DNA of 64,000 nucleotides from Candidatus Omnitrophota bacterium (GCA_043815445.1 JBDRIY010000058.1:16403-80402); one strand, 5' to 3'. Positions 1 to 30,859 are shown, counted from the first letter of the stretch. Numbers and translations are program-made. Notes: generated by a model from the letters alone, not told the origin.

Positions 1-949
1 TTTTTATTTTTTCGCGGCTTATCATATTCAATACCCTTATCAAACCAGAACTGTCAGTAATCATAAGTATACCTGCGTTCTTCAAACGCGCGATAGAAGT
101 GTCATACATTTTATCGAAACGGGCAAGATAAGGGTTACAACCTGCTTTTACCGGGCTGGAAAAAGAATTGTAGTTAGTAATTTGCCTGCTCCGTTGGCGC
201 GAAGCGACTCTTCGGGGTTGTTGGTTGTTGGTTTGGGAAGCAGGGTTGGAAGAAAAATGTGCATATTTGAGGCGGAAGAATACCGGGGTGCCGGGCGGAG
301 GGGCCTGCTGGCGGCAGGATTCTATTTTGGCAAGCTGATAGCTGATACGGAAAAATTGTTCTAAACAAAAGATTACTTTTTGCGGCTCAAAGTTAACTTT
401 TATGATTTCTAACAGACTATAGCCTATTTTTACATAAAATAAGCCTGCTGAGTTTTTCTCGTCTACATCAAGAACTATACTATGAATATTCCTGCCGGAG
501 GAGAATTCAATTACTTTCTTAAATAATTGGGTACCGATATCCCTTTTCCAAAGGCATGGTTTAACCACTATATAGCTTATATAAATTGGGTATTTTCTAA
601 ACGGCCCAAATACTAAATATCCGGCAATTTCATTATTTATATATTTGATTACCGTATGGTTTCGTGGATTTTTTACCGCGCTAATAATATCCATACTATT
701 GCTTTCTACCGGAGCCTGGGGCAGGTTACCTACTGAATAGTTAAACAGTCCTATTGCCCTTTCTATGCTATCGGTAATACTATTTCCTTTAAAAATACAT
801 AGACCTTTATTATCAACTGCCGGGCTGGAAAAGATAAAATCTTTTGAATACGCTTTCAATCTAAAAATAGGAGTAGCGGCCATTTTATTTAAATCGCCCG
901 CGAAAACCTTAATGTTTACAGGCTTTTTAAAAAATAGAAGCGTCCCCAT
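1..949 (-). CDS. GNAT-family N-acetyltransferase domain protein. The 5' end (ATG) is at 949 and the frame runs off the window start. Residues after the GNAT core (window 1-380) form a GC-rich low-complexity segment containing RQQAPP.
   Basis: Reverse-complement translation gives MGTLLFFKKPVNIK...MDIISAVKN...YIVVKPCLWKRDIGTQLFKKVIEF...NIHSIVLDVDEKNSAGLFYVKIGYSLLEI. These are GNAT motif A (R/Q-x-x-G-x-G/A-like) and motif B. The plus strand here is T-rich, which is the minus-coding signature in this window. The 3' part of the frame is unverified. Confidence 0.4.
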   Translation of the reverse strand, partial: MGTLLFFKKPVNIKVFAGDLNKMAATPIFRLKAYSKDFIFSSPAVDNKGLCIFKGNSITDSIERAIGLFNYSVGNLPQAPVESNSMDIISAVKNPRNHTVIKYINNEIAGYLVFGPFRKYPIYISYIVVKPCLWKRDIGTQLFKKVIEFSSGRNIHSIVLDVDEKNSAGLFYVKIGYSLLEIIKVNFEPQKVIFCLEQFFRISYQLAKIESCRQQAPPPGTPVFFRLKYAHFSSNPASQTNNQQPRRVASRQRSRQITNYNSFSSPVKAGCNPYLARFDKMYDTSIARLKNAGILMITDSSGLIRVLNMISREKIK

Positions 950-1013
950 TTTTACGGCAATAGGAATAGTTTTATTGGCTTGACTAATCAAAGAAAATAA
1001 GGTATATATATTA

Positions 1014-1268
1014 GTGATGAAGACTAAAAGAATATCAAAGAAAAGGTTTAATGCTGATGCTTGGCTGGGCAAAAATCTTGAATATCTTGTTAAGAATTTT
1101 GCTGGAGGATACGTTATTATTGTAGATAACGTAGGCCTTGTATTTACAGATGCTGACGGAACACCGAGCGAAATTGTTAAAAAAGCAAAAGCTAAATATC
1201 CGGGGAGCATACCGCTATTTTTCCGTGTTCCCCGCCCGCAAGATTTTGTATGCGCTCTAATTCTATAA
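1014..1268 (+). CDS. Small hypothetical protein (84 aa), directly upstream of and overlapping the aspartic protease ORF.
   Basis: ORF in the track (MMKTKRISKKRFNADAWLGKNLEYLVKNFAGGYVIIVDNVGLVF...). The plus strand is purine-rich here. I recognise no family. Confidence 0.45.
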   Translation: MMKTKRISKKRFNADAWLGKNLEYLVKNFAGGYVIIVDNVGLVFTDADGTPSEIVKKAKAKYPGSIPLFFRVPRPQDFVCALIL

Positions 1269-1642
1269 AATTCCCTTATAAAATCCACAAAGGAATTGCC
1301 TGCCCTATTATTCCTATAGAAATAAAAGGCCTCATAATAGATACTTACGTAGATTCCGGAGCTTTTTATTCTATTTTTTCCACTAAAGAAGCTGAAGCCT
1401 TGGGGATAGAATACCAAAAAGGTAAACCTGCCCCAGCGATTGTAGGAGATGGCGCCCAAATACCTGTTTTTTATCACAAACTCGCTATTAAAATTGGTAA
1501 TACCTCCCTTATCGCAACTATAGGATTTTCTCCACGCCTGGGAGTCGGTTTCAACCTCTTGGGAAGAAAAGATATATTCAACCGTTTTAAAGTCCTTTTC
1601 GACGACAAGCGCCAAGCCATAACTTTTATTCCTTACAAATAA
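1250..1642 (+). CDS. Retropepsin-like (clan AA) aspartic protease.
   Basis: The translation contains the hallmark I-D-T-Y-V-D-S-G-A-F (D-S/T-G-A active-site motif) followed by a hydrophobic flap region. It overlaps the preceding ORF by 19 nt in a different frame. The true start may be internal. Confidence 0.55.
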   Translation: MRSNSIKFPYKIHKGIACPIIPIEIKGLIIDTYVDSGAFYSIFSTKEAEALGIEYQKGKPAPAIVGDGAQIPVFYHKLAIKIGNTSLIATIGFSPRLGVGFNLLGRKDIFNRFKVLFDDKRQAITFIPYK

Positions 1643-1676
1643 AAATACCGGCGAGCTGGAATATTCCTTTATTGTC

Positions 1677-4600
1677 TTAGCAATTTTTACCTCCCTAACC
1701 ATCCCTATATTATTCTTCAAAACATTCTCTTTTGCTCTTTCTAAGGCCTTTTCCCAGTCAACTTCATTTTCTAACTCAAGCCATTGAGCTATTCCATAAA
1801 CTTTTTTAACTTTTTGCTCATAAAACCATTCTCGCCAATTATTATTTATAGCTGTCATTAATTCTTCTAATCCGCGAACATGGTCGTTGTAACGAATTCC
1901 ATCATAACCATTTAAATACCTCTTGCCTTCTAACTCTTGCTCTTGAAAACCCATACTTCGTAACAAATTATACATAGGCATTATATGCTTTCTATAATGA
2001 ACCTTGTATATGCCCGCGGACATATATTCTAATTCTCTTTCTTCAATATCGCTTAAAGTATAATAGGCGTGGGCGTATCGCGCGCCTAAGTTTAACAACA
2101 AGCTTATTCGATATCCGCCAATAAAGGCCCGGGCAATTATCTCTTTTCCTAAGTTTTGCCTTTCAATCTTTAATTTAACCCTGCAGGTATGACAGCTAAC
2201 CGCTAATTCATCTAAATCTAATTTAACCGAACCTATAAAAACATTTCTTTCAGCAGTATAAAGTTTAAGTGAAATTACCCAGCTTCCTGTATCCGAGTTA
2301 AAACCAACCTTCCAAATTTCTTCAATAAAATAACTGCTCACACACTCAGGAAACAGCTTATGAAACTCCTGCTTCAAGGGACTGCTTATCTTATTAAGAG
2401 TTCCATTCTCTAATAAGTATTCTCCTGATTCGGCTATTTCGTAAATAAGGCCGCCTTCTTTTTTTAAGCGGTAGCCGCGCAAACGTTCTTGAGCAGATAT
2501 TTTAGGATCTGCCAGTTCATTTACAGTTAAGTTTTCAAACTCCCAGGATGTATCAGTATAGAATCTGCCTTTAACTAAGATGTTAACGTCTTTGGCCGCC
2601 TGAATTACCAATACTCCGTCTAAATCTAAATTATTAAATTCTACTTTACCTTCTCCTTCTACTACCAAAGTTGAGCGGTTAGTAACAGTGCCGCCGTTTT
2701 TAAAACTATCTATTACTGACTGAAGTGTGGGGTAGATTAAAGGGTCAAGATATATCTTTGCCCCTTTCTGATAGGTAACGCCGTGAGTCTGAGCAGGGGT
2801 GCCATAAACATTGATATCTATGCCGGCGGCTAACAAAGCGATGCGATTGTTACGGTAGAAGTCGCTTTCAGCTAAAGCCAATGTTTCTGAAGGTATGCCT
2901 GCGGCTACTGCGTCTCTTCCTAAAGATAAGCTATTTTTGGCAGCAGAAAATATCCAGGCGCCATCCTCAAACTGAATAACCGCTATTTCTCCTTTATCCC
3001 CTAAGATCTGAGCGATATCCTGCATATTATTCTCTGGCCGGCAGTCAGTTTTAAGCTTATGAGCTTTTATTTCTCCCGGCAAGGTGATTTTTATAAGCTT
3101 ATCCAGGCTGCGTTCTTTATCCTTAGGGTTAACTAACTCGGGCACCAGGCCTTGAGCTTCTTTTAAGGCCTCTTGATAAGGTTGAAATGCGATTACTAAT
3201 CCATTGAGATTACCGGGGAAAGGCGAAAGGCCAATATCATCAGCTTTATCTTTATCTCCTAAAAGCATATATTCTACGTTCATTACGGTCTCTTCTTTGG
3301 TTTGCTTATGGATTAATTTGGCTAAAGCGCCTACGTTTGAACCGGGATAACGCGGGGCGGCAAGAAAAACAAGGACGTATTTTTTTTCCTGAGCTAAAGC
3401 TAAGGCGGGAAGCAAAGAGCGAAAGACGGGTAAATTAGTGTCCTGATAAAAGACGATGAACTTAGCGTCTTTAGCCATGCCTCGCTCTATGACCTTATTC
3501 TGATAAAAAACCATATGAATATCTCCGTGGCCATGAGCTTTTTCAACCATTTTATAAGGATTCGCATTATCAACAACAAAGTGGCCTTCATAAGTAAAAA
3601 CAGAAAATACCAAAGGTTGAGGATACATTTCTATCTGGGAAGCTTTAGCGCCGAAATAGTAGTTTTCTTCGTAGAACGCTTGGATATCCCGATGATTATC
3701 CTCTGAGGTCATAATCGCGTTCATCAAGGTATAGTTTTCACCATTATGCTGGTTGGCAAGCCTTACCCAACCCATAATCTGACGGGCCTGAAAGCCGGCA
3801 AAACAGGAGTTATCACTGATCAAGGCTATGCGCAAGCCTGGCTTTATTCCGGTATAAGTCAAAGATTCATTTTTACTCAAGCGCTCTCCTCTTCCGCCGG
3901 CAGGCTCAGCCCAAATCACTTTATTAGCTATAGACAGGCCTTTTGCTTCTAATCCAAGGTAATATTGAAGAGCAGAATCTATAAGTTTACCCATAGAATC
4001 TACCAAAGAAGCGATAGTAGTTACCTCCGGGACATCTAATTTATAATCATCGAACCTGGCTTTGCCTGAATAGTAGTGTCTCAAAAGCCTCCTAACATTA
4101 TCAATTAAAGCTTCTATTCCTCCAGGGTATTGCTGACCACGGCTTAAGATTTGATTAAGCATTTTTAACTTATCCTGATCTTTTACTCCCGGGACATCCC
4201 AATGAGCAAAAATATGGGCCTGGCCCAAAGACAACATCTTTAAAATAAGCGCCAAGTGTTTAGGGAGGCTAATTACGCCTTGAGTAATATTGGCGGCTAA
4301 ACTCTCTAATCCTAACTCCTTGGCCTGCCGGGCGAGACTGTCCGAATTACTATCTTTATTAATAGGTGAGCTGGGGATATTGTTTGGAATAACAACCCCA
4401 ACCCAAGGTTTATTATGCCAATCTTTAACTTCTATTTCTTTTAGCGGCGCTAATAGCTTCAAGCCAGCGTATTGGAATATTGCCTTTAAATCATCTTCAC
4501 TAAATAAACGGATACATTTACCGTCATATCCTTCATACATTTCTTTTTCTATCGGCTTCTTATATCTAGTGTCTTTGGTAGAAAAAACCTTAAAAACTAA

Positions 4601-5876
4601 AGATCCTTTTGGGCTTAAGACTCTTCTTATCTCTCTAAAAACCGCTTTTGTTCTCCCCCATGAAAAATACTGCAAAGAAAGATGCGCGTAAACTATATCA
4701 AAATAGCCCCTTGGAAACATTTCTAATATTGAAAGCATATCGCCAATTATAAAAAGAGTTCTTCCTTTTTCTTCCTGATTCAACCTGCTTTTAAAACACT
4801 TTATAGCCTCTTTAGAAAAATCAATATGAATACCTGAAAATCCTTGCCGCGCTAACCAATAAGAACCTCCATCTCCATTCCCACAGCCTAAATTTAAAAG
4901 TTTCAGCTTTGAAATATCTTTACCTTCCACAGCTAATTTGACCAATTTTTGCATATTTTCAAAAACCTGAGGTTTAACCCATTTAGACCCGTTAGCGCTT
5001 CTTCCGGTGCTGTATTGCTTATTAAAAATATTTTTTAAAACTCTTAACCTAATGTTCTCCTTGCTTTCAATCGGCGAACTTACTAATTGTATTTTTAATG
5101 CCTCGAAGTTAACCGGACTGCTGGGGTTAGAAACACTCTTTGCTTCAAGAACTTGCCGAAGCTGATAAGCAGGCTGAGCGCCTTTTCTCCATTCTCCTGC
5201 CTTTGCAATTGCGATAGCTTCTTCTAACAGTTCGGGTTTCTGGGTTGCTAAAGCCTTAATTAAATCTGCCCAATAATTATCTATTTGAAAATTAAGCAGG
5301 TATGTTACGCTCCATTTTATTTCAGGATAGCTCATCCACCTAAGGAACCTGAAAGCTCGTTCCCATTGCTCAGCTTTTATTAAATTCTCTAAATGCTGTT
5401 TTGCCATTTGAGTTTTTAGGCTTACTCCATCACAGGTATAAAATAGCTGGCCTTTCTCGTCAATTTCTCCAAGGAAAAATACAATGTTACCTCCTGTTTT
5501 CCAATCTAAAGCTAACTCAGTTTGTTCAAAAAGAGACTTTAATAAAGGCTCAAGCCTTACGCGGTAACCTTTCCATAATTTCATCTCTCCCCACATCTCT
5601 TTAAATATTCGTAACCCTTCAGAGAAATCTTTCTTCGTACTCTTGGCTATCTTATTAAGAAGATCTTGAGCATCATCCCTTATCCGGTATATATCGCTTT
5701 GAAGCCTCTCATCCTCATATGTCTGTCTCGCGCAATTCCACATTGACTTAAATTCTCCAAACGCCCCAGGCCAATCCCCATCCTGAACCCTCTGTTGAAA
5801 CCTATCCCTATAAACTTTAAAATTCGAAATTGGGCTGGAATCTTTATTGACTTGCTCTTGGCTTCCTGCTATCATA
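1677..5876 (-). CDS. Large multidomain enzyme. It has an N-terminal helical region, a class I SAM-dependent methyltransferase, and a UDP-glucose pyrophosphorylase (UDPGP-family) like nucleotidyltransferase with a C-terminal extension.
   Basis: The ATG is at 5876 and the codon phase (plus-triplet starts = 0 mod 3) was checked. The in-frame stop TAA is at 1679-1677. The methyltransferase motif LNLGCGNGDGGSYWL is encoded around 4862-4900. The UDPGP motifs AEPAGGRGERL (~3886-3909) and KAHGHGDIH (~3512-3537) resemble the eukaryotic-type UGPase G-rich loop and P-G-H-G-D motifs. Confidence 0.6.
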
Positions 5877-5916
5877 TCCCTATGAATTTTAGCGGAAAGC
5901 TCAACTGATTGTATGT

Positions 5917-5922
5917 TATTAT
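5917..5922 (+). promoter_or_regulatory. Putative -10 (TATTAT) within the conserved promoter-like block upstream of antitoxin copy A1.
   Basis: The block ctcaactgattgtatgttattatt closely matches the block upstream of copy A2 at 14330-14352. GGAGG at 5933-5937 precedes the ATG at 5948. Confidence 0.35.
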
Positions 5923-5947
5923 TTTGGCGAAAAAGGAGGTAATTAAA

Positions 5948-6190
5948 ATGTCTAATAAAATTACTTTGGAACTTAAGCCTTCCACTGTTGAAGAACTGGT
6001 AGAAATGATGCCCATTGAAGCTAAGATCCGGCTGGTGCGTAAATTGGAAAAAGAGACGTGGGGTAAACGTATAGACACATTGCTCAAAAGAATAGACCAG
6101 CGCCGCAAAAAATACCCTATTTCTCAAAAAGAGATTTCTAAAGAAATAGCTGAAGTGCGAAGACAAATCTATGGTAAAAGCAACAATTGA
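5948..6190 (+). CDS. Antitoxin-like small protein, paralog family subtype A (copy A1). It is the partner of the downstream PIN fragment.
   Basis: MSNKITLELKPSTVEELVEMMPIEAKIRLVRKLEKETWGKRIDTLLKRIDQRRKKYPISQKEISKEIAEVRRQIY. It has an RBS GGAGG and a TGA stop. It is paralogous to 14378-14629, 11093-11338 and 30191-30439. The 20-nt overlap with the downstream PIN ORF is typical of TA operons. Confidence 0.7.
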   Translation: MSNKITLELKPSTVEELVEMMPIEAKIRLVRKLEKETWGKRIDTLLKRIDQRRKKYPISQKEISKEIAEVRRQIYGKSNN

Positions 6191-6380
6191 TACAAATATC
6201 ATTGTTTCCGGACTAATTACCAGAGGAAATCCCCGCAAAATATGGCAAGCGTTTAAGGCCGGAAAATTTAGGGTTGCTTTATCATCGTTAATGTTTGAAG
6301 AGCTAATGGGTGTCTTAGCCAGGTCGAAATTCCATCCCATCATTACCGCTAAAGAATTCATCACACAATTAGAAAAATAA
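6171..6380 (+). pseudogene. PIN-domain toxin, N-terminal fragment only (69 aa, against 137-140 aa in the paralogs).
   Basis: MVKATIDTNIIVSGLITRGNPRKIWQAFKAGKFRVALSSLMFEELMGVLARSKFHP. This matches the first half of the PIN family seen at 14604 and 30411 (first acidic residue IDTNI), but stops at TAA 6378-6380. Confidence 0.5.
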
Positions 6381-6479
6381 TACTCTTTTTCCTTAATAAC
6401 TGACACACTGGAAGCTTCTCTGTTGTCGTAGGAATCTTTTCTTCTATCTATCGGACTGGATATTTGCGGTTGGTTATTC

Positions 6480-6740
6480 GGCAAGAACATCGAAGCTTTT
6501 ACCCCCACTCGTCCCTCGTCCCTCGTCCTTCGTCCTTCGCACTCCATTCCCCCCTTCTCCCTTCTCCCTTCTCCCTCATTGCTAACTGTTAAATGATAAT
6601 TGATAATTGCTAATTGTTCCTTCCCCTCTTCTCCCTTCTCCTCACATCCCACATCCAACATCCCACGTCTTACATCTTCCCCCTTCTCCCCACTAGCACC
6701 CAGCACCCAATATCCAGTATCCAGAACAGAAGCGCCATCA
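6480..6740. repeat. C-rich low-complexity tract built of short tandem units (tcgtccc/t x4, cttctccc x3, gataattg-like x3, catccca-like x4, cacccag/cagtatccag).
   Basis: Direct reading of the sequence. The plus strand is almost T/A-stop free here. The minus strand would encode a Gly/Glu/Arg-rich tail. Confidence 0.8.
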
Positions 6741-6749
6741 TCAAAAGTA

Positions 6750-9700
6750 GAAGGAACACGAATACCCTTGTCAGTTTCTTCCGGCATTGACTCAAGCTGT
6801 TTAATAATTATATTGTGGATTTCCCACGAGTTCATATTCTTAAAGCCTGACCCTTCACCTTCTAAATTAGACTGCGCCTTATCTACTAAATCAGCATCTT
6901 GAAAACGCATATTAACTACCCTTAAAGCTTTTATTGCTTTTTCCTGGCCCATTTGAACCTCTACTTTCCAATCCTCTATAAAAGTTCTTAAAATATCTGT
7001 TGCTTTATAGCTCAAATGTTCAAATGTTTCATCTTTCTTCATTATGCTGCGCAGTTGAAATTCAATATTTAATAAGGCAATAATGTCTATCGGCCTACAC
7101 CCCTGAATGATTTCATCTTTCAAATCATTGATAACCTTTTCTATTACTGCAGGATTAATATTTACATCCAAGGCAAAAATCATATCCTCTATAATTATTA
7201 TCGCATTATTACCATCCGTATACACCTCTACCCCCGCCCCCGACGGCATATCTATTACTCCATCCTCCGCCCTAACATCTCCCGGCGTAGGCAAAATCCA
7301 AGCAACTGTACTTAGAATACCTTGTAATATTGACCCTTTATCTAACAAAGTAGTTTTCTCTTGCTTTTTACCCTGCTTTTCCAATTCTTCCTTATTAAGC
7401 CCGCCTTGCGTTTGCGCATCTACCTGTGAGATGTACATTAATCTATTATATTTATTATCACGATTATTTTTAAGATATTCAATTATCTCACCCCATAATA
7501 ATTCAAATTTTAACTTTACTATCGCAGTATCTGCTTCAGCAGTAATCCCAAAAACGCTAAATGCTCCCAAAAGTGAATTCCCGCGATACTTCTGTTGCGC
7601 GGCGATAACCGTTGGGTAACTCAGAGATTTAGGAAATCCCGCGTATTCCTTGTACCATGAGAATAAACCCTCTTTTTTGAAATCCTGCATAAACCGCGTG
7701 GCAAAGTTCAACTCATTTACCTTATCCTCCATAGTTACAGCACCATGATCTATTACCGGGAGATATTGACTTAATTCATGGGTTAAAACTAAAGCAATTT
7801 GCCCATCCGGCTTATCCTTATATTCAGAGTTCATCTTCACTACCAAAAGCCCTTCTTCTGCTTCTACTACCACAGGCAAACAACTGCCGTCTCCTGCCTC
7901 TGAATCTATCCAGCCGCCGGCCCTTAATATTCCACTGTATTTAGCTAAAGAAGTGTCGTGGTAACCAAGAATTACTGCTACATAATTTACCGCCCAAACT
8001 AATTTATGATTATTTTCATTCTCAGCAGATACCATGCTAACTTTATGATTTATCTCCAAATCATCCGACACCCCATTGCGATTAATATCGCGATAGCGTA
8101 ACTGCATAAGATCATTAGGCATATAAAGACGGTCTAAGGAAAGGGACTCCTCTGCTTTCCTTCCTATCTGCTGCCAGGTTGCTCTTTGACTTATACTTTC
8201 ATCAAGAATAGGCCAGAGATATTTCTGGGATTCAATTGATAATTGATTAGTTCCCAAAAGCTGCACATTAGGCCAAGCGCTTGTCAACAGCACTGCGTAA
8301 TGGTTTAAACTTGAACATGAACCTACGATATAGATTTTTGCAGGGTAGTTATCATTAGGTAAATTAGTAAAGGTTTGATACAGATTGATTCCTATACCTG
8401 AATGGCCATCATATAAAATTCTATGGATATTAGGATCTCTGGCGAATTGGGCTATTTCATTGCTATCGTCTTTTGAAAATAGAGAAATAAATACACTCTC
8501 ATCTACACCGCCAATAACACCTCTATAGATACCTTCTTCACTCTCTTTAAACCCGTATCTTTCTGAAATACCTGCCGTAAAAGAATCCAAAAATTCGCTA
8601 TCATAAAAATAGGCTTTAGTTCCCACTCTGTTTAATTGTCCTCCCTGAGCTTGTGCCCATTCTTCATAAGGAGGCGCTATAGGGAGAGAGGCTAACTGCC
8701 ACAAATCTTTATCTATAACTTCATCGAATCGATACATATCTGGGTCTTGAGACTGACGGGATATTGCCTTAAATACACTGGCTATATGATAAAAGGTTTT
8801 TATAGAATTTAGGGTAGCACCTTCAGCTATCGCTCTCTCTCTTGCCTCTATATATTGAGGAAACATCAAAGATAATCCTTTAGGCGTAACATTCAATAAC
8901 TCTATGCTCAAGGAGCTAATCTCATCTAAACAAAGCGGGCCGAGAATAGAACTTTCATCCACCCTGACCCATTCCCCTAAAAGCCTCTTATCTATTTGAC
9001 TCAGTTTGCCCCGCATCTCAAAATAGCTCTTCACAATACCGCTTAATCTCGTCAACCCCTCCGTCGCATTCAGCTCTTCTGAGTTTATATTAGGCTTACT
9101 ACTAACACAAATGGTTCTTCCTTCTACAGTAACCCAAGGAGATATTTCCCCCGCCCAAGCACAAGGAATTAAATTACTGAAGAAATTCTTTATGCGGGTA
9201 GAAAATATTTTGTCTTCTTTCGGCGGGTCCTTATTATTAAGTTGTATTTTTTCTTCTTTCAATGGCTGTCTCGGACTAAACAAACTAATATCGCCTTCAG
9301 GTTGAGGTAAAATTAAAGACGCAGGCTCTGACTTTCCAGCTTTAGACTGAGACTGTCTAGTACTTATCTCAGGAATCCGCGTAGATTTAGGTAATGGTTT
9401 CGAAGCATCTCCACCTGTATTCTTTAGCAAATTCTTCATTTCGCCAACGCTTAACGCCTGCTTCCAATTATTATTTTGATTACGCAGAATGGGCATACTT
9501 GGAGAATAAGGCACAAATGGCCTAGTTGGAGTATAACCGGAACTAGGAGCTGCTGAAGCATTGCCTCCTGAAAGCATAAAGAACAACCCAATTCCGAAAG
9601 TGAGGACAACAACTACAAAGACCGGGCCATACTTATATGTATAATAACCAAAACTTTTTTTAACCTCGGGTAAATATTTCCTTACAGCAGCAATTGTTTC

Positions 9701-10816
9701 TTTTTCTATCTCAACTTTCTCATTTTCAAACTTAAATTCCTTCCACACATTCTCGGTTATCTTTTCATAAAGACTGTTAATCAATTCCTTTAATTGTTTG
9801 TCAATAGATTCTTTAGATAAATTGTTGCTGTCGTGGAATATTGTGAGAAGTACTATATTTGTTAAGTTATCTTCTGTAAACTCGCTTTCTAAAGTATCTT
9901 CTATAACCTCGCGTGATAAGGACACCCCTATTTCTTTCTCAATTTCTTCCATCTTCTCCAAAGATAAGTATTGTGACGTCTGAGAAAGTTCTTTAATTCT
10001 TTCATTTACCCTTCCGGCAAACTCTTTTTTAATCTGATTATCTTCCAAGTTATAGTTAACGGATGTTGTAACAGCTTCTCTTATAATAGAATAAAGAAGT
10101 TCTATCTTCTCTGGCGCGGTTAATTCGTAATTTTTCCTATTGACTGCTCTTAAGTACTTATTTATTACAAAATCAAATAGATAATCCGCGTTGGATGGTA
10201 TATTGCATTTTCCTTTCGGATTTGTTTTAAATTCAAAGTTTTCCCTCCATACAGCAATTTTCTCCAATTGTTCCTTAAACTCTTTTACTGACTCTTCAAG
10301 GTAATTCAAGCTGCATTTCAAGCGCGAATCTTCACTGCGCTCACTTAGCTTCTTTTTTATCATTTCTAAGGCCGCGTTTAACAAGTCAAACGCGTCTCTT
10401 GTAGAGCTCGTATCTCCCAAAGCGCATATTTCTTTTATACGTTCATCTTCCAATTTATCTCTTATATCTTGTATGTCTCCCTCTTCTATTTCTATAACGC
10501 CAAGAATTTTCATTATTTGTTCATATGTCTTGCCAACATATTCAAAAGCATTGGTTACAGTTTTATTTTCTCCGATTCCATCATAAAACTTCTCCACAAC
10601 ATCTACAGCATGGCCAAAATTATCAATCCCCTTACTTCCTCTCCGTATAATAAACACTGTCGAAACAACCACTGCAATTGCTGCCGCGATAAGATAACCT
10701 GCAGCTACCGCTACCCACCACTGTGCTGAAGTCAAATATAAAAATGTGCTTGAAGCTAAAGTATCTCCTGCAAAAGCAAATCCAACTTTACTAAAGAAAA
10801 CAGCTGCCCCCGCCAT
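6750..10816 (-). CDS. Large membrane-anchored protein. It has N-terminal TM helices, a long helical region, a second TM segment, and a C-terminal alpha/beta region with a His...Cys pair (ILYDGHSG ... IYIVGSCSS), possibly a caspase/CHAT-like protease fold. The 3' end is approximate.
   Basis: ATG at 10816 (phase 2). The two other frames at the start hit stops within 30 codons. Phase 2 was verified open, and the other phases closed, at 6841-6900 and 7021-7080. There is no in-frame stop before the C-rich repeat tract, so the end is not fixed. Confidence 0.45.
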
Positions 10817-11039
10817 AACCGATAGCAAAGCAAACTTTGACTTTCTCAACAAATTCCGCCCCCAATTGCCACCCCATCTTAAAAATAGTGAAAATAGGGA
10901 CACATCCCCTTTTTCGTTTACCACCGCGCTACTTGTCTTCGCGAGAGCCACAGGAAAAACAGAGGAATTTTGAATAAAGTGACGAAGCTGTACGAGGATT
11001 CTTGATTCTCGTAAAATAGAAACATCCCTACACAAATCC

Positions 11040-11068
11040 TTGACATGATTTTTAAGAAATGGTATAGA
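11040..11068 (+). promoter_or_regulatory. Sigma-70-type promoter TTGACA-17 nt-TATAGA for the subtype-B antitoxin.
   Basis: TTGACA 11040-11045, 17-nt spacer, TATAGA 11063-11068, RBS GGGGAGG 11081-11087. A nearly identical block is at 30102-30130. Confidence 0.5.
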
Positions 11069-11092
11069 TAAGCCGTCATAGGGGAGGTGTTT

Positions 11093-11338
11093 ATGACTAA
11101 AATTACGATTGATCTTAAACCAGAGCAAATCAAAGAAGCTTTTCAAAAACTTACTATTCAAGAAAAACTTCGCCTTACCCGAGAAGTTGAAAGGCTTACC
11201 CGGCGTTTCCGCTGGGATAGTCTCATTACTAAAGTCAGAGCCCGCGCTAAAAAATATCCCCTTGCCCAAAAAGAAATAAATCAAATATGTAAAGAAACTC
11301 GTAAAGAACTTTATGAAAAAAGAGCTAACTGCCGCTAA
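11093..11338 (+). CDS. Antitoxin-like small protein, subtype B (copy B1). It is an orphan: no PIN gene follows.
   Basis: MTKITIDLKPEQIKEAFQKLTIQEKLRLTREVERLTRRFRWDSLITKVRARAKKYPLAQKEINQICKETRKELYEKRANCR. It is about 85 percent identical by eye to 30191-30439. The track called the GTG at 11087. The ATG at 11093 is better placed relative to the RBS. Confidence 0.7.
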   Translation: MTKITIDLKPEQIKEAFQKLTIQEKLRLTREVERLTRRFRWDSLITKVRARAKKYPLAQKEINQICKETRKELYEKRANCR

Positions 11339-11462
11339 CAACCCAACGAGCTCGAGGTGGAAAAAAGAACCAGAAAAATTAGAAAAGTGCTTAATAAAAA
11401 ACTTATTCTTGACAAGATAGAACATTTTGTAGATAATAATAAAGCAAAATAAGGAGGAAATT

Positions 11463-11864
11463 ATGGAAGAAAAGAAAATTGCAAAGTTATTAGAAAAAAT
11501 GAATGGTAATATTATCGAGTTGAATAATAAATTTACTGGATTAGATAACAAGGTTACTGGATTAGAAGAAGGACAAAAAGAACTTAAGGCAGGCCAATTA
11601 AGAATAGAAACTAGGCTGGGGAAAGTTGAAATCAGGCTGAAAAAGGTTGAAGATAAATTAGAAGCTACTTTTGTCCGGACAGGCAAAAATTTCGAAGAAA
11701 TTACCCAAATTAAAACCCAGTTAGAAAGCCTTGAAATAATTAAAAAAGACATACTAACTATTAAACATACCCTTAGAAAAAAGGCTGATTTAGAAGAACT
11801 ACAATCCTTAGAAAACCGCATGGCAATAGCAGAAAGACGATTAGCAAAATTCATCCACCATTGA
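11463..11864 (+). CDS. Coiled-coil protein (133 aa), function unknown.
   Basis: RBS AAGGAGG at 11452-11458. The sequence is heptad-rich (LEKMNGNIIELNNKFTGLDNKVTGLEEGQKELKAGQLRIETRLGKVEIRLKKVEDKLE...). Confidence 0.55.
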   Translation: MEEKKIAKLLEKMNGNIIELNNKFTGLDNKVTGLEEGQKELKAGQLRIETRLGKVEIRLKKVEDKLEATFVRTGKNFEEITQIKTQLESLEIIKKDILTIKHTLRKKADLEELQSLENRMAIAERRLAKFIHH

Positions 11865-12055
11865 CCTATCACGGGTTTTTCACCTTGAGGCGCATCTTGG
11901 AATTTTGCTCTATCTTCCTTCCAAATATGAAAAGAAAAATACCAATCCCCCTCTTCAAAGCCCAGCTTTTTAAAAACAACATTATTTAAGCGCCTTTTAA
12001 ATTCTCCTTGATTTCTCAATAAAGATATGTTATCTTTTGTATGAGGTGAATTATA

Positions 12056-12277
12056 ATGACTAAACTGGTTTCCGCTATTTACGAGCATGGGAATCTTAGG
12101 CTTATTAAACCGCTGAAACTGTCTGAACACCAGAAGGTGCTTATTGCTATTGCTGTTAGCAACGATGAGATACCTTCTATGCTCATCAGCAAACTCGCTG
12201 AGAAGTCGAAAAGTTTCCATTTCTTGACCAACCCTGAAGAAGATATTTATTCCCCCTCTGACGGAGAAAAAGTCTAA
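12056..12277 (+). CDS. DUF104-type (AbrB/SpoVT-like fold) antitoxin.
   Basis: MTKLVSAIYEHGNLRLIKPLKLSEHQKVLIAIAV. This matches the 'AIYENGVLKPLEPLxLxEG' signature of the DUF104 antitoxin family. A MazF gene follows 5 nt downstream. Confidence 0.6.
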   Translation: MTKLVSAIYEHGNLRLIKPLKLSEHQKVLIAIAVSNDEIPSMLISKLAEKSKSFHFLTNPEEDIYSPSDGEKV

Positions 12278-12281
12278 CTTT

Positions 12282-12629
12282 ATGAGCCTTAAACGCGGGG
12301 ATATCGTTCTTGTGCCTTTTCCTTTTACAGACTTAACCAGCACAAAGGTTCGTCCGGCAGTTATTATTTCAGCTGACCCCCAAAAAGAAGATATAGTTAT
12401 AGCCTTTATTTCCTCAGTAATTTCCAAGCCTGCCGGTAACACAGAATTTTTACTTACTTTAACCAATCCGGATTTTGCCTCTACCGGCCTTAAAAAAGAC
12501 TCTATATTTAAAATGGGTAAAGTTCTTACTCTTTCAACCGTCCTCATCCTAAGGCGCCTTGGACGCATATCTGCCAACATCCAAAAAGAATTAGACAATC
12601 TGCTCAAGAAAGCGCTGGAACTCACATAA
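12282..12629 (+). CDS. mazF: MazF/PemK-family endoribonuclease toxin.
   Basis: MSLKRGDIVLVPFPFTDLTSTKVRPAVIIS... This is the canonical RGDIVLVDFPFTDxSxxKxRPALVLS N-terminus of PemK/MazF. Confidence 0.8.
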   Translation: MSLKRGDIVLVPFPFTDLTSTKVRPAVIISADPQKEDIVIAFISSVISKPAGNTEFLLTLTNPDFASTGLKKDSIFKMGKVLTLSTVLILRRLGRISANIQKELDNLLKKALELT

Positions 12630-12649
12630 TTTACTATTCCCTGATTTTC

Positions 12650-13480
12650 CTTAGAAAAATAATACTCTTTTTTCACCGGCAAATTGATAGGATTTTCTTT
12701 CGTTTGAACAGAGGCCTGAGCAATAGCGGGGTTATCTTGGTTTGTGCCAATGGGTGAGCTGGGAATACTCGATCCTAGATACTCGATGCTCGATGCTCGT
12801 AAAATAAAAACATCCTTTTTTCCTTGCGGCGGTGAGGCTCCGCTATGTCTGTATCTATCTTCATCTTCAAAAGCAAACTTTTCAAAAACAACATTATTCA
12901 AAAATCTCTCTGCCTTTCCCTCAACTAAACTTTGTTTTGATACAAGTATGCCGGAGCTAGATTTTGTTTTAGAATTAACCTCCACCTTGTCATTCCCTCT
13001 ACCCGGCTCCTGCATTATAATAGCCAATTTTGCGTTGTTGAATTCAAAGCCATAGACGCTGTCTGGATATGATACAAGGAACTCTTCTTTTTCTACTTTA
13101 ATCTTTTGTATATCTTTACCATCCTTATCAGCTAAATAAGCTGTGAATGAACCTTGCCGGCAAAGAGAAATTTCCATTCTACCCTTTCCGTCTTTTATAT
13201 GCTTATGAGCGCTTTCTTTTCCCTTGGCTGTTTTTATACCTACTCCTATACCAGCGCTCCTTGGCGTAATCATTGCCATTTTTGAAGGCGAATACATACT
13301 GGATCTATGAATTACAGCCATTAAATTGCCTTTATCATCTCTATCATACTCAGGATAAGCCTCCAACCCCTCAAACCCCTGAGCTATCTTATCGTATATT
13401 TCAAGAAGAACCGGAGAGCTGGAATGACTGCGGCCGGTTTGAGTTGAATCTTTACTCTTTAGATAGGCTTTCTTGACAAA
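12650..13480 (-). CDS. Hypothetical protein. Minus-strand coding is supported by T-rich plus-strand composition and a protein-like translation. The boundaries are approximate.
   Basis: Reverse-complement translation ...MAVIHRSSMYSPSKMAMITPRSAGIGVGIKTAKGKESAHKHIKDGKGRMEISLCRQGSFTAYLADKDGKDIQKIKVEKEEFLVSYPDSVYGFEFNNAKLAIIMQEPGRGNDKVEVNSK... The two plus-strand track ORFs here (12744-13055, 13273-13476) look like shadows. The ORF ends with a PxxxKKEYYFS tail like the one at 6393-6410. Confidence 0.3.
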
Positions 13481-13558
13481 ATTACCTATACGTGGTAATG
13501 TTATTTTTATAATAACCTTTGAATTATTGTAAACAATAAAAATAATATAGAGGTATAA

Positions 13559-13828
13559 GTGCGGTTTCAAAGATACGAATAGGATGATGCAAATATAGAG
13601 CATATTAGCAGTCATAAAGTCATCCCACAGGAAATAGAAGAAGCTAATTTCAACGAACCTCTTGTAATGAGAGTAAGGGGTAATAGATATATTGTTTATG
13701 GACGTAGTGATAGTGGACGTTATATTTTTATTGTGACTATTCATAAAGGACAAGGGGTTGTGCGCGCTATTGCCGCCCGTGATATGACACAAGCTGAGCG
13801 CAGGCTTTATAATAAAAAGCGAGGTTAA
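13559..13828 (+). pseudogene. brnT: BrnT-family (DUF497) toxin interrupted by an in-frame amber codon (TAG 13580-13582).
   Basis: The translation (GTG start) is VRFQRYE*DDANIEHISSHKVIPQEIEEANFNEPLVMRVRGNRYIVYGRSDSGRYIFIVTIHKGQGVVRAIAARDMTQAERRLYNKKRG. This resembles BrnT (xRFEWDxxK...HGVSFEEA...). The stop falls about where the conserved Trp is, consistent with TGG to TAG. BrnA follows 3 nt downstream. Confidence 0.55.
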
Positions 13829-13831
13829 TCT

Positions 13832-14110
13832 ATGCCCAAAAAGATCCCCAAATTCAGGAGTGAATCCGAGGAAGCTAACTTTTGGGCCACCCATGATAGT
13901 ACTCCATTCTTGAAAGATATGAAGGAAGTCTCCAATATCCGGTTTCCTAAACCAAAGCATAAATCGCTTATCCTTGACCTTGAACAACCATATATAGAAG
14001 CCATCAAAAAGATTGCTAAAAAGAAACATATCCCCTATCACAATCTTATAGAAAGATGGATTAAAGAAAAAGCCCTCCCTAAAATGGCCGCTTCTACTAA
14101 TCTCGAATAA
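13832..14110 (+). CDS. brnA: BrnA-family antitoxin (ribbon-helix-helix).
   Basis: MPKKIPKFRSESEEANFWATHDSTPFLKDMKEVSNIRFPKPKHKSLILDLEQPYIEAIKKIAKKKHIPYHNLIERWIKEKA matches the BrnA signature (IPxFxSExEExEFWxTHDSTDY...). Confidence 0.75.
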   Translation: MPKKIPKFRSESEEANFWATHDSTPFLKDMKEVSNIRFPKPKHKSLILDLEQPYIEAIKKIAKKKHIPYHNLIERWIKEKALPKMAASTNLE

Positions 14111-14323
14111 CTTTTTCGAAACCAATTTTACGGCAGACAAATATTGCGTATAATCAAACAAATAAAAATCATTGTTATTTTTAATACAACTACGAAATCC
14201 TTCAAAACTCATATTATTAATGGATGAACTGTTCTCGTGAGAAAAGGTGTCTGTCCCCTTTTTTAAATAATTATCTTGATTTTCATTAGATGTATCTCTT
14301 TTTTTACGTCCCCTAATCTCTCC

Positions 14324-14352
14324 TTGACTCAATAACACTTGTATGTTATAGT
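14324..14352 (+). promoter_or_regulatory. Sigma-70-type promoter TTGACT-17 nt-TATAGT for antitoxin copy A2.
   Basis: TTGACT 14324-14329, 17-nt spacer, TATAGT 14347-14352, RBS AAGGAG at 14366-14371. The ATG is at 14378. Confidence 0.5.
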
Positions 14353-14377
14353 TTTTTTGTATAAGAAAGGAGAAAGA

Positions 14378-14629
14378 ATGTCTAATAAAATCACTTTGGA
14401 ATTGAATCCTAATCAAGTAAAATCTTTGGTAGAAAAACTTTCTATTCAAGAAAAAATACGCCTTTTGAAAAAACTCGAACAAGAAACTTGGGCAAAAAGA
14501 ATAGATAACGTAACCACAAAAATAAAAAAGAAATTTAAACAATACCCTCTGCCCAATAAAGAAATTACCCGTATTTGTAAAGAAACCCGCCAAAAAATCT
14601 ATAATGAAAGAACTAAAAGTCGTCATTGA
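14378..14629 (+). CDS. Antitoxin-like small protein, subtype A (copy A2).
   Basis: MSNKITLELNPNQVKSLVEKLSIQEKIRLLKKLEQETWAKRIDNVTTKIKKKFKQYPLPNKEITRICKETRQKIYNERTKSRH. It overlaps the PIN start by 26 nt. Confidence 0.75.
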   Translation: MSNKITLELNPNQVKSLVEKLSIQEKIRLLKKLEQETWAKRIDNVTTKIKKKFKQYPLPNKEITRICKETRQKIYNERTKSRH

Positions 14630-15017
14630 TTCTAACATTTTAGTAAGCATACTAAAGGGAAGCGTTTCTCTGTCAATAATATATACCGCTTTTAAAGAAA
14701 ACTCATTTAAACTAATCATAAGCGCTGAAATTCTAAAAGAATTAGCGTCTGTTTTATACCGTCCCCACTTAAAAATTAATCCTTCTGATATAAAAGAACT
14801 CTTCAGATTAATAAAAAATAAATCTATTCGCGTAAAATTGCCCACGCCATTCATCAACGCTTGCCGTGACCCTAAAGATAATTTTATATTAGAACTAGCT
14901 ATAACCGCCCAAGCGAGATTTATTATAACCGGCGATAAAGATTTACTTACTCTTTCTCCATTTAAAGGAATCTCTATCCTATCCGCTAAAGAATTTATCG
15001 CTTTCTTAAAAAAATAA
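14604..15017 (+). CDS. PIN-domain ribonuclease toxin (137 aa).
   Basis: MKELKVVIDSNILVSILKG...ITGDKDLL. This has the PIN-family conserved acidic residues and is full length. It is a paralog of 30411-30833. Confidence 0.8.
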   Translation: MKELKVVIDSNILVSILKGSVSLSIIYTAFKENSFKLIISAEILKELASVLYRPHLKINPSDIKELFRLIKNKSIRVKLPTPFINACRDPKDNFILELAITAQARFIITGDKDLLTLSPFKGISILSAKEFIAFLKK

Positions 15018-15020
15018 CCC

Positions 15021-18000
15021 TCCGGAGAACTTCTCACATCTCCAATCTCCAAGAACAAAACACTTAATTGTTGGCTTTTTACCTGAATTTTTTCAATTAG
15101 GTGTTCTGTCCCCTTAATTATCCCCTTAATTATCCCCTTAATTACAGAAAACAGAAGCTTCCCCTTTTCTACTCCGCCTGCTTCTACGGCAGATGAATAG
15201 ATAGCATTAGAATGCCTATTTTTCTGCGCCAAAAAATACTTTCCTCCGTTCTCACTAACAACATTTATATATGGACAAGTTAATGGTTTACTTAAATCTA
15301 TCAAATAAAAATCCTTTTTTGTTGAACTGCTAGGCTTTACAAGTTCTCCACTAACCGCAGAACTCTGCGCCAATAAAGATGTCAATGAAAACATGAAACC
15401 ATCTATATCCTTAATTACACACCTCTTGTCTAAATAATCTCTTATAGCGTAGTAAAAAAACGAAGATAAATTTCCTCCTTCAACAGCGGGCTTGCCGGTA
15501 ATGCTCTTTATAAACCGGCAAAGATAATTAAACTCTTGTTTTTGAACTTGGCCAAATCTTGAAACGAGATCGACAAAATTAAAAGTTCCAGAAAGTTTAA
15601 GCACATCTACAGGATTATCATTTATGTACCTATCCAAAGATTGCCCTTTCTCTTCTAATGATTTCATAATACTAATTCCAGGAAATAAAAATACTGAATG
15701 GATAGGAACCAAATCAGGAATAGAAACTCTTGCTTGATTTTTTAAATCATCTTTTCCCCACCACAAAACTTTAGATTTTTCTAAACGTTTCACTTTGCTA
15801 AAATACGGCCGAGCCACCTTACCATCCGGAAACGGCATATCTTTACATAAAATATCTTCCATTATCAAAAATTGCGTTTCCGCAGTAAGAGAAACTATTC
15901 CCTTTTGAACACCTGAAGCAATGAAACCATACAAATCTTTATGAATCCTCAAAATCAATTCCCTATCTTGAACAGTTGCCTTTAAAACTAAATAATGACT
16001 ACTTTGCTCAAACCTAATAATTGCTGAAGACCCTGCCCCACCCGACACCTGAACTTTTATCGGTTTTGCTTCTCCAACACAAGAAGGAAACTGCTGATTA
16101 CCTTTCTTAATCAAATCTTGTTTATCTTCCAATATTTTCTTTAAAATTGGCTCAATCTTTAATACAACAAGATTGACAAGACGTTCTTCATAATCTCTTG
16201 TAAGAGAAATATCTCTGCTGGATATGAGGAATATGCAGTTCATACTAATATCTGGGAAATTATTAAAATCTATCGGGCTGGATTTTAGGAAAGATATTAG
16301 CGCTCTCGTCATATTGACAGTATGTTCATTGAAAATGCGAGTGGTTAAGGAAAAATGTATAATTATCCACTGATATTTCTTTTGCTTCGCCCATGATTTA
16401 TAGATTCCATAAGATAACGTGCTTAATTCACTAAACAAACCAAGGCCGATCATAGCCTGGTACGGATTTACTAAAGGCGTAAATTTTCCTGCCGCGGCAA
16501 ATTTAGCGTAATTACGGCCGGTTGGTTTTATCTCTTTGTCCGTAAACTTATCTATTAAATCCGCAATACTCCAATTATTATTTCGCAAAATCCGCACGAT
16601 ACTCCCCTCTTCTATCTTTACAATGCTTCGAAAACATCCCATAAAAAGAACATCATCGTCTAAAACAATATTCAAACGCCGCGTTAAATCCTTAATCTGT
16701 TCAAAAGCGAAAGCCGCTTTACTTCTTTTAAAATAACTGATTGCTGTCTGGTTGAGATCACATCCAAATAAATAGTATCTTTTTCTAACATCTTCAATGA
16801 ATTCATCTACTGCCTTAAAAGCTATAATAACATCCGTATAACTCGCGTTAAAAGAAAGATACTTTGCCAATTTCTTATGCCATTTAATAATATTCAGCTG
16901 GCCGGAATATAACTCTCTTAAAAATAACTCCCTGTATTGTTCAAAAACATTAGCTTTGCCGTTTACTTGTTTAATTACTTTAAGTCTACGGCCTCCCCCT
17001 AACCATGCCCCTGCCTCTTGCTGCAAAACATACTCACATCTAGCAAAATATTCTTTTAATATACGGCGTACGCGCTGTCTTGAAAGGTTCCATTTTTTAG
17101 CAAGATCCTCCGGCGCTTTTCCTTTAATAAACCAGGCAAAAAATATTTTTTTATTCCTGATTATTTTCTCACCGCTATGACTAATTGTTTTAGATAAATG
17201 ACTGTTTAAAATCATTTTTATTCTTTTCTTTTCTTTAATAGTATATTCTTTCTCTATAAAGGCTGGCGCGGATTTTTCATAAAGATTACCTCCACTATTC
17301 TTTATGCAATTAGCATATATAAATTCTATGTTCTCTTCTTCATGCAAATTTTCCGGCGAATATTTTTCGATCCTCTTAACATACCGAATACAGGAGTTTC
17401 TAATCGCTTGTAAAAAATAATTTCTCACTTTAGCATTATATTGTCTATTTTTCTCTTCATCAAATAACTCGATGGCTCTAACTAACCCTCCTCTTCCGAT
17501 ATTATTACCATAAGTTCCTATTTGTATTAAATCATTTAGCTGAAGATTTAACCGGCGATTTTTACGAAGAATCCGCCGGGCCGTATTTTTTACTAAATAC
17601 GCGTTCATTATAAGCAATGTTTCTCTTGCTTCTAAACTGCCTTTTTGAACTAATCTAAGCAACTCTAAATTCTCTTCTTCTGTGAGCGCCCTTGGTAGCG
17701 ATATAACAGTTCGATCTATTACTTTAATATCCGGCAAAATTTCTTTTATTCCATTCCACCCCATATATTTTCCTACCCATGGCCCTTTACCTTTTTTAAA
17801 TGAAGCAATACCGGCTTTCTTAATAATCCTGCTCCACGGCCTTGATGCCCGGGCCCTTACCACCCAAGGATATCCTTCTCGTATCCACTGTGTTGAATTC
17901 CCCGGGTCAGTAATTCCGGGCGGTGGTTTTCTTAGTAAGGCAATAATTTGTTTTTGGGAATATTTTGCTCGTGAAGTACTCTGGGAAATTACCGGACTGC

Positions 18001-19456: not shown

Positions 19457-19685
19457 TTCATTAAAGAAGCTGTTGTTAGAATCTGAAGGCGGCAAAGCCG
19501 GGCCGCTGCCGGAGATGTGGATTATAAAAATATATGGGGAGTTATTAAGATCTATCAGGCTGGATTTTGGGAAAACTAGAAACGTCTCCTTTTTTACCTC
19601 TCTTGCTTTTTTCAAGCTGAAATCAAGTTTATTGACACCTTCGCGGGAAAATGTTATATTTAAATTGTCCAAATAAGGAGGCTGT

Positions 19686-19913
19686 ATGTTAAGACATTTT
19701 AAAATAGTTATTGAAGAGGAGCCTTTAGGAGGCTTTTCCGTACATGTTCCATCGCTTTCTGGTTGTGCTACCCAAGGTGAAACACTAAAAGAAGCAATAT
19801 CTAACGCCGAAGAAGCTATCAAGCTGTATCTTTGGTCATTACAAGATGATGGTATTTCTATACCCAAATCTGATATGCGGGTAGTATTGAAAGATATCGA
19901 AGTATCTGTATGA
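19686..19913 (+). CDS. hicB: HicB-family antitoxin (UPF0150).
   Basis: MLRHFKIVIEEEPLGGFSVHVPSLSGCATQGETLKEAISNAEEAIKLYL is the typical HicB N-terminal RNase H-like fold signature. It overlaps the HicA start by 4 nt. Confidence 0.75.
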   Translation: MLRHFKIVIEEEPLGGFSVHVPSLSGCATQGETLKEAISNAEEAIKLYLWSLQDDGISIPKSDMRVVLKDIEVSV

Positions 19914-20143
19914 CGAAACTGCCCCAAACTTCCGGAAAAGAAGCTATCCGTGCTCTCCAAAAAGCTGATTTCTTCATCAAGCGTCAAAGCGGTTCCCATG
20001 TAATAATGAGGCATTCCACCGACCTCACCCGGCGCTGTATTGTCCCTGTCCACGGTTCTAGAACTATAAAACCCGGCACCCTCCACTCTATCCTCAAAGG
20101 CGCCGCCATCTCCATAGAAGAATTCATCAGCCTGCTTAAATAA
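19910..20143 (+). CDS. hicA: HicA-family mRNA interferase toxin.
   Basis: SGKEAIRALQKADFFIKRQSGSHVIMRH...IVPVHGSRTIKPGTLHSILKGAAISIEEF is the canonical HicA/YcfA motif. Confidence 0.8.
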   Translation: MTKLPQTSGKEAIRALQKADFFIKRQSGSHVIMRHSTDLTRRCIVPVHGSRTIKPGTLHSILKGAAISIEEFISLLK

Positions 20144-20191
20144 AAGAATTTCATAAACTTCGGGCGTCTTTTCCTTCAACAAATTCGCAAT

Positions 20192-30100: not shown

Positions 30101-30101
30101 C

Positions 30102-30130
30102 TTGACACGCTTTTTAAGAAATGGTATAGT
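30102..30130 (+). promoter_or_regulatory. Sigma-70-type promoter TTGACA-17 nt-TATAGT for antitoxin copy B2. It is near-identical to 11040-11068.
   Basis: TTGACA 30102-30107, TATAGT 30125-30130, RBS AAAGGAGG 30173-30180. Confidence 0.5.
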
Positions 30131-30833: not shown

Positions 30834-30859
30834 TTCTCTTTTTTAATAAGTTCAAGTTT

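Follow-up and report, generated by a model that had tools for sequence, protein, structure and literature searches.

A heptanucleotide repeat mosaic within a giant stop-free frame of a Candidatus Omnitrophota bacterium: a probable internal low-complexity linker

The repeat mosaic at positions 6508-6724 of the DNA analysed here (64,000 nucleotides from a Candidatus Omnitrophota bacterium, hereafter the window) probably represents a low-complexity linker, translated within a giant multi-enzyme open reading frame (ORF) on the minus strand and built by local heptamer slippage. We place the probability of this reading at about 0.6. The mosaic lies within a frame that is open across the whole window and passes, on the opposite strand, through several toxin-antitoxin (TA) genes.

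Repeat mosaic

The repeat mosaic is real, non-random and far denser than expected by chance. Seven tandem arrays, each with a period of 7 nt, were found within a repeat core of 217 bp (6508-6724) by Tandem Repeats Finder and an exact-duplication scan; the former retrieved six arrays (6508-6709) and the latter the seventh, TATCCAG x2. The arrays were distributed as follows:

6508-6539, array 1: CTCGTCC x4.6, drifting to CTTCGTC (Tandem Repeats Finder)
6552-6576, array 2: CCCTTCT x3.6, perfect; minus strand GGGAGAAGGGAGAAGGGAGAAGGGGGG (Tandem Repeats Finder)
6578-6616, array 3: TAAnTGn / ATTGATA x5.6, AT-rich (Tandem Repeats Finder)
6619-6641, array 4: CCTTCTC x3.1 (Tandem Repeats Finder)
6643-6666, array 5: CACATCC x3.4 (Tandem Repeats Finder)
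6695-6709, array 6: AGCACCC x2.1 (Tandem Repeats Finder)
6711-6724, array 7: TATCCAG x2 (exact-duplication scan)

Copy number per array ranged from 2 to 5.6, most arrays being imperfect, and the longest perfect tracts reached 3 and 3.6 units. A 19-nt family was common to 6553-6571, 6627-6645 and 6675-6693, and the core was bordered by unique flanks (6480-6507 and 6725-6740). Cytosine accounted for 44% and guanine for 7% of positions 6500-6720, against 22% and 15% in the window. An earlier reading made from the sequence alone had described at least five different short tandem repeats in a cytosine-rich tract; both points were confirmed, the count now standing at seven. As the unit is 7 nt long in every array, the arrays are heptanucleotide repeats rather than generic microsatellites.

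The mosaic, which covers 0.34% of the window, contained 8 of its 18 exact two-copy period-7 duplications, while 6.0 were expected in the whole window from first-order Markov simulation. Only periods 7 and 6 were enriched in the window (4, 5 and 8 were not), which fits a mutational preference for heptamers of the kind noted in bacteria at large; heptamers are reported to be the most abundant class of long simple sequence repeats (SSRs) in many bacteria (Mrazek et al. 2007, as summarised in PMC4679880). The mosaic tract gave no Rfam match and contained no intrinsic terminator, and no RNA fold of the mosaic was better than those of shuffled sequences. An inverted repeat around the mosaic (6455-6473 / 6700-6718, 79% match) was discarded, being of the same quality as 11 other chance-level pairs.

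Giant open reading frame

The minus-strand frame 2..64000 was stop-free over 21,333 codons and ran off both ends of the window in a six-frame scan, while the longest open stretch of the other five frames was at most 170 codons, with stops at 4-11% of codons. Between 5840 and 6740 the giant frame held no stop, while its two minus-strand neighbours had 18 and 29; between 6500 and 6720 the counts were 0, 3 and 4. Array 3 carried many stops on the plus strand and none in the giant frame. In mononucleotide shuffles, an open giant frame was obtained with P = 0.006 for the mosaic alone and in 0 of 20,000 cases for the antisense TA segment.

Because no stop interrupts the giant frame in the mosaic, in the spacer or opposite the TA genes, the mosaic lies inside the ORF and is not its tail. 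The sequence-only reading had put the tract at the tail of a giant gene, with a truncated TA cassette on its other side. The truncation of the cassette stood up (PIN_3 profile positions 3-66 of 115), whereas a spacer outside the giant gene is contradicted by the same frame remaining open through the mosaic and the antisense TA genes down to position 2. A C-terminal tail conflicts with the presence of a recurrent SSP motif on both sides of the cassette and with a frame open across the whole window. The Gly/Glu/Arg-rich in-frame character claimed for the minus strand was found as described: the translation of 6508..6724 (minus strand), LDTGYWVLGASGEKGEDVRRGMLDVGCEEKGEEGKEQLAIINYHLTVSNEGEGRREKGGMECEGRRTRDEGRVGV, contains 59% G/E/R/K/D residues and averages -0.97 in hydropathy.

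Predicted tryptic peptides across the mosaic were GMLDVGCEEK and EQLAIINYHLTVSNEGEGR. In an AlphaFold single-sequence model the mosaic peptide was coil, with the lowest pLDDT (23-35); as the mean of the whole model was itself only 36.8, these values make a weak call and are just consistent with disorder. A self-trained codon-usage score was lowest over 5801-6700 (0.08-0.15 vs about 0.25 bits per codon elsewhere), although stop penalties dominate this scoring, which was set aside as not discriminating.

Recognisable domains of the giant frame were found on both sides of the mosaic:

Upstream of the mosaic, minus strand: Pfam domains alpha-amylase, GT5 starch synthase, 4-alpha-glucanotransferase C-terminal, HD_5, Radical_SAM and Peptidase_M24
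Downstream of the mosaic, minus strand: Pfam domains Methyltransf_11 and GNAT

A sugar-nucleotidyltransferase-like region was also present among the downstream modules.

The window ORF resembles the giant proteins described in Omnitrophota, which include multi-enzyme 'Archaeovorins' (West-Roberts et al. 2023, bioRxiv 10.1101/2023.11.21.568195) and 'multi-enzyme metabolic clusters' (Nielsen and Lui 2026, bioRxiv 10.64898/2026.06.07.730766), the latter work providing a catalogue of 916 giant proteins. With 21,333 codons it exceeds the 10,000-codon minimum, its Pfam set (PF08241, PF00583, HD, PF08323, PF04055, glycoside hydrolase, peptidase) corresponds to modules 1 and 2 of those proteins, for most of it no homologue could be detected, and it contains TM-like segments. 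Their N-terminal SecA_DEAD/C39 hallmarks fall outside the window, which covers only the interior of the ORF. According to both preprints, Omnitrophota giant proteins are mostly unique in sequence, which fits the near-absence of homologues for the window ORF. Term searches of the two preprints returned nothing on heptamer linkers, on junction motifs that recur or on TA genes embedded antisense.

Antisense toxin-antitoxin genes

A truncated TA cassette lies beside the mosaic, antisense to the giant frame:

5847..5875, plus strand: sigma-70-like promoter, TTGACT-17-TATCAT with upstream TG, ahead of the antitoxin gene (consensus match only)
5948..6190, plus strand: antitoxin-like gene, 80 aa, apparently intact, codon-aligned with the giant frame, 20-nt overlap with the toxin start
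6171..6380, plus strand: truncated PIN_3 toxin, 69 aa, profile positions 3-66 of 115, E 1.1e-8, antisense inside the giant frame

The layout is that of type II TA systems, with the antitoxin first and two small overlapping ORFs, but the toxin domain is not full-length. The antitoxin resembles the one that precedes a full PIN_3 gene elsewhere in the window (14526-15014). No trace of the C-terminal part of PIN_3 was seen in any plus-strand frame downstream of the truncated gene or under the mosaic, and the mosaic and spacer occupy the place where the 3' half of the toxin would be expected.

At least five TA toxin genes, four of them full-length, were embedded antisense within the open frame, along with a protease fragment:

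1196-1639, plus strand: aspartyl-protease fragment, antisense to the giant frame
12228-12626, plus strand: PemK/MazF, full-length, antisense to the giant frame
14526-15014, plus strand: PIN_3, full-length, antisense to the giant frame
30378-30830, plus strand: PIN_3, full-length, antisense to the giant frame
44030-44404, plus strand: PIN/VapC, full-length, antisense to the giant frame

Antitoxin-like ORFs preceded two of these toxins (about 12057-12230 and 14400-14530). Opposite each cassette the giant frame carried no stop, against 5-21 in the other two frames. Codon choice in the embedded genes followed their phase relative to the giant frame. In the codon-aligned genes (5948-6187 and 44033-44404), none of the 16 Leu and 16 Ser codons was TTA, CTA or TCA. 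In the four non-aligned genes (6171-6377, 12282-12626, 14604-15014 and 30411-30830), TTA or CTA supplied 35 of the 57 Leu codons, and codons for Tyr, His or Gln never came after one ending in T. The avoided patterns are exactly those that would create stops in the giant frame; codon choice thus argues that the giant frame is kept open by selection, even across embedded genes.

The antisense translation of the PIN_3 cassette had homologues inside four other long proteins (P0009, P0012, P0015 and P0018), at 29-43% identity and always in the same antisense phase. The three PIN_3 copies of the window shared one antisense phase, matching that of the four proteins. An open antisense frame may be inherent to this cassette family. 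A word-indexed protein search of limited sensitivity returned no match for the antisense PIN_3 translation. For two of the four proteins the arrangement was confirmed in the DNA, on contigs from independent Hainich groundwater metagenomes with PIN_3 opposite a long stop-free frame:

L030, 7119-7730, minus strand: PIN_3, full-length Pfam profile match
L033, 6390-6878, minus strand: PIN_3, recognised by ORF translation only

Both contigs lacked heptamers, and the 3' flanks of five cassettes showed no DNA similarity (z <=1.2), so the mosaic was rejected as a conserved 3' end of the cassette. On these two grounds, the arrays look like a lineage-specific mutational habit in weakly constrained linkers rather than a part of the cassette. 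Since L030 and L033 share the antisense PIN_3 cassette and not the arrays, the association of mosaic and cassette may be coincidental.

Several further arrangements were observed around cassettes and long open frames. On contig L034, a plus-strand open frame (1738-2478) spanned a minus-strand TA cassette (1743-2445), with similar cases on L035 and L036 and with TPR, histidine kinase and response regulator neighbours. P0015 corresponds to a 235-aa gene called on five contigs from the open antisense frame over the same TA family. P0009 (4053 aa) has the same 18 residues at its start and end (AKSNIESGRLFIDPRLGY), about 22 SSP and an antisense PIN_3 cassette, as if a stop-free frame had been followed all the way round a circular contig of about 12 kb. 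The plus-strand frames of L030 (2-6691, 6529-9228, 9210-10127 and 10012-19230) are long and stop-free, with short overlaps and different phases, and resemble a giant ORF split by three frameshifts, real or due to sequencing errors.

Within the window, a direct host repeat of about 20 aa flanks the MazF cassette and the heptamer/SSP linker that belongs to it (ERFLNNVVFEKFAFEDEDRY at about 12844-12901 and RRLNNVVFKKLGFEEGDWY at about 11932-11989, minus strand); its appearance would fit a long target duplication or a footprint of recombination. A hydrophobic TM-like element (..FLPKFP..APPL..LVLFLFFYT[RH]HKN..) recurs in the minus frame at about 46285, 44809, 41713, 39076 and 30898, two of its copies being translated immediately before the antisense VapC and PIN_3 cassettes. 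The plus-strand ORFs 36348-36752 and 43347-43670 have a repeated peptide in common. Antisense TA segments were twice as rich in TM-like 19-mers as the complete ORF.

Junction motifs and distant relatives

Short SSP motifs recurred along the giant frame, including on both sides of the TA cassette:

6449..6460, minus strand: SSPI(D) junction motif, TCC AGT CCG ATA, translated 48 nt after the mosaic
5828..5839, minus strand: next SSPI(S) junction motif, just beyond the antisense TA segment in the direction of translation

SSP was found 19 times in the giant frame against 3.7 expected (about 5-fold), mostly followed by I or V, an enrichment that counts only against the composition of this frame, since the C/T-rich plus frame also gives 27 SSP tripeptides through composition. 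Among the 19 sites were 20251, 18001, 16282, 15031, 13420, 12760, 6460, 5839, 5122, 5080, 4372, 2386, 1657, 829 and 160. The serine codons of the motif displayed every combination of TCN and AGY, indicating that SSP is kept at the protein level and ruling out a DNA-level repeat.

Other multi-copy heptamer duplications were located at 216-233, 333-347, 12782-12799 and 15038-15052, each at most 200 nt upstream of an SSP in the sense of translation. Those at 12782-12799 and 15038-15052, like the mosaic, lie at the 3' flank of a TA cassette. A perfect 12-nt repeat in three copies (TCCCCTTAATTA) at 15109-15144 encodes (IKGI)x3 in the giant frame; it adjoins the heptamer duplication 15038-15052 and the SSP at 15031, where the full PIN_3 gene has its 3' end.

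Homologues were found for the modules on either side of the mosaic and for the antisense TA segment, and none covered the mosaic. Searches with the 588-aa flank found no homologous locus in genome, metagenome and viral contig collections, the 1001-aa flank had no match among 5.8 billion proteins, and a HMMER search of representative proteins returned just contigs of about 1 kb, for the upstream module. The methyltransferase module matched only generic methyltransferases in GTDB genomes, mostly from Patescibacteria (31-41% identity), which were discarded as uninformative. From the composition of the mosaic peptide, its coil-like model and its lack of homologues we conclude that the putative linker would be under little sequence constraint apart from stop avoidance.

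A single contig, L032, carried a module related to the upstream neighbour of the mosaic, as a distant relative (40% identity) that diverges from the window before the position equivalent to the mosaic. It was stop-free over 12,271 nt and contained five in-frame heptamer arrays of unrelated units, two of them directly upstream of a recurrent junction motif, [PA]RSE[MVI]R (11 copies; RSEVR). No embedded Pfam-detectable gene was present near these arrays. The only homologue of the downstream methyltransferase module, P0001, had RTSP[LFTV] as its junction motif. Each giant ORF displayed its own over-represented junction peptide: SSP[IVL] for the window ORF and for P0009, RTSP[LFTV] for P0001 and [PA]RSE[MVI]R for L032. 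These motifs may be processing sites or linker signatures.

Discussion

In the linker reading, slipped-strand duplication of seven different heptanucleotides would have produced the mosaic, the main visible constraint on the segment being the absence of stop codons in the giant frame. Its product, if translated, would be a stretch of about 75 residues, rich in Gly, Glu, Arg and Lys and probably disordered, joining the upstream module to the SSPI junction motif, and presumably without any dedicated regulatory role. The linker would occupy the site where the toxin of the antisense PIN_3 cassette lost its 3' half. Against this reading, seven arrays in 217 bp are extreme even for a giant ORF, and such a density hints at something beyond neutral slippage; the concentration of G-quadruplex (G4) motifs in the mosaic (see below) also counts against it.

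Cyanobacterial STRR elements are bacterial heptanucleotide SSRs. The mosaic is like bacterial heptamer SSRs in its 7-nt unit, its short arrays (2-6 copies) and the occurrence of several arrays per genome. TAACTGA direct repeats are found in Beggiatoaceae, cyanobacteria and Bacteroidetes (PMC4679880), and positions 6584-6618 (TAACTGT TAAATGA TAATTGA TAATTGC TAATTGT) read as a degenerate TAACTGA, a loose match and the only such block in the mosaic. Known heptamer SSRs are mainly intergenic, often just upstream of start codons, with one consensus per family. Unlike TAACTGA and STRR repeats, the mosaic combines seven unrelated units in 217 bp inside an ORF, in the stop-free orientation.

A wider scheme, which we hold tentatively and consider rather doubtful as a whole, would make the mosaic one junction of a polyprotein-like giant ORF. 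Its lineage-specific motifs would be possible processing sites, heptamer linkers and antisense TA cassettes would travel as passengers between modules as long as the frame stays open, PIN_3 would be a mobile family adapted to an antisense life within giant genes, which it would perhaps stabilise against deletion, and the arrays would be frame-tuning scars or truncation switches at the cassette edges. The window ORF is like interdomain linkers and viral-style polyproteins in having charged low-complexity spacers between enzyme modules, and the short motifs at module boundaries (SSP[IVL], RTSP[LFTV] in P0001 and [PA]RSE[MVI]R in L032) add to the likeness; cleavage is hypothetical.

Heptamer duplications, each adding +1 to the frame, could also be repair scars compensating for the frame lost when an antisense TA cassette was inserted or truncated, an unlikely explanation in our view. 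It agrees with the position of heptamers on the 3' side of three plus-strand TA cassettes (from 6381, 12630 and 15015 onward), with the truncation of PIN_3 beside the mosaic and with an open frame under selection. Against it, units of 4, 5 and 8 nt, whose lengths would likewise shift the frame, were not enriched; the embedded cassettes of L030 and L033 have no heptamers, and the arrays of L032 have no embedded Pfam-detectable gene nearby.

The sequence-only reading had also proposed that the slippage-prone tracts may act as a phase-variation or recombination element. As a truncation switch, a gain or loss of one or two heptamers would end the giant protein at the linker and reversibly switch off the downstream modules. 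This would be mechanically possible, since the arrays are in frame, a unit of 7 nt is not divisible by 3 and either shift would bring up a stop codon at most about 25 codons from any array. A precedent exists in Haemophilus influenzae hmw1a, where (AATTTTG)14 lies within the ORF and produces a frameshift (PMC2651432); as in hmw1a/hmw2a, a copy change in the mosaic would shift the frame. The documented heptamer switches have 13-38 copies (PMC2651432), whereas the mosaic arrays have 2-5.6, mostly imperfect, with at most 3.6 perfect copies, and so lack the long uninterrupted tract of such switches. Phase variation is weak a priori because of this low copy number, and the ORF appears strongly selected to stay open across embedded genes; we regard the switch as improbable.

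Readings at the level of RNA or DNA structure fare worse. The plus strand could act as a rut-like Rho-loading tract, which would end antisense TA transcription before a head-on meeting with the giant gene. At least about 80 nt of C-rich, G-poor sequence (44% C, 7% G) do follow the stop codon of the truncated toxin, downstream of the promoter-like site, and the plus-strand RNA is essentially unstructured (-18.4 kcal/mol over 261 nt, z about 0 vs shuffles). The whole plus strand is richer in C than in G, however (GC skew -0.06 to -0.34), Rho is not known for the host, and the tract shows no conservation and has no intrinsic terminator, which leaves this role quite improbable.

A G-quadruplex or i-motif element pausing polymerase or ribosome, or promoting recombination, is very improbable. 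The window holds four canonical motifs (four G-tracts of at least 3 bases, loops of at most 7), all on the coding strand, two of which are inside the mosaic (6549-6575 and 6679-6708); the only others are at 29174-29198 and 36501-36525 (minus strand), the latter overlapping a heptamer/octamer array. Known precedents are the G4-forming GGGNATC heptamer repeats of Xanthomonas and Nostoc, which favour four units (Rehm et al. 2015, PMC4692102), and GGGAGAA x3.6 in the mosaic likewise gives exactly four G-tracts, tens of bases from the stop of the neighbouring gene. A quadruplex appeared in the minimum-energy structure (ViennaRNA with G-quadruplex folding), but composition-matched shuffles folded equally well (z = 0.43). 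The G4 potential raised by the sequence-only reading thus holds for the two motifs and not for their stability, which does not exceed that of shuffles. Unlike GGGNATC repeats, which are mainly non-coding (PMC4692102), the G-rich strand of the mosaic codes for the giant ORF, and no conservation was found.

A true intergenic spacer, with the giant gene ending near 6740 and an accidental open frame onward, is hardly credible: the lowest codon-usage score (5801-6700) and the lack of homologues of the segment would agree with it, while 0 in-frame stops against 18 and 29 over 300 codons, none in 64 kb, and SSP motifs and recognisable domains continuing downstream in the same frame speak against it.

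Taken alone, the repeat patch that we read as a linker is a modest curiosity; its context, with TA genes lying antisense in an open frame, is more striking. A frame of at least 64 kb stays stop-free across junk-like repeats and opposite-strand toxin genes, and the codon choice of the toxins adapts to it. This sequence-level evidence indicates that such enormous ORFs would be selected as single reading frames, and the context suggests how giant ORFs grow and tolerate insertions. Junction motifs, linker peptides and embedded TA cassettes provide handles on a possible polyprotein-like processing, and embedded genes, translated antisense, may account for some of the hydrophobic TM-like segments that are predicted in giant proteins.
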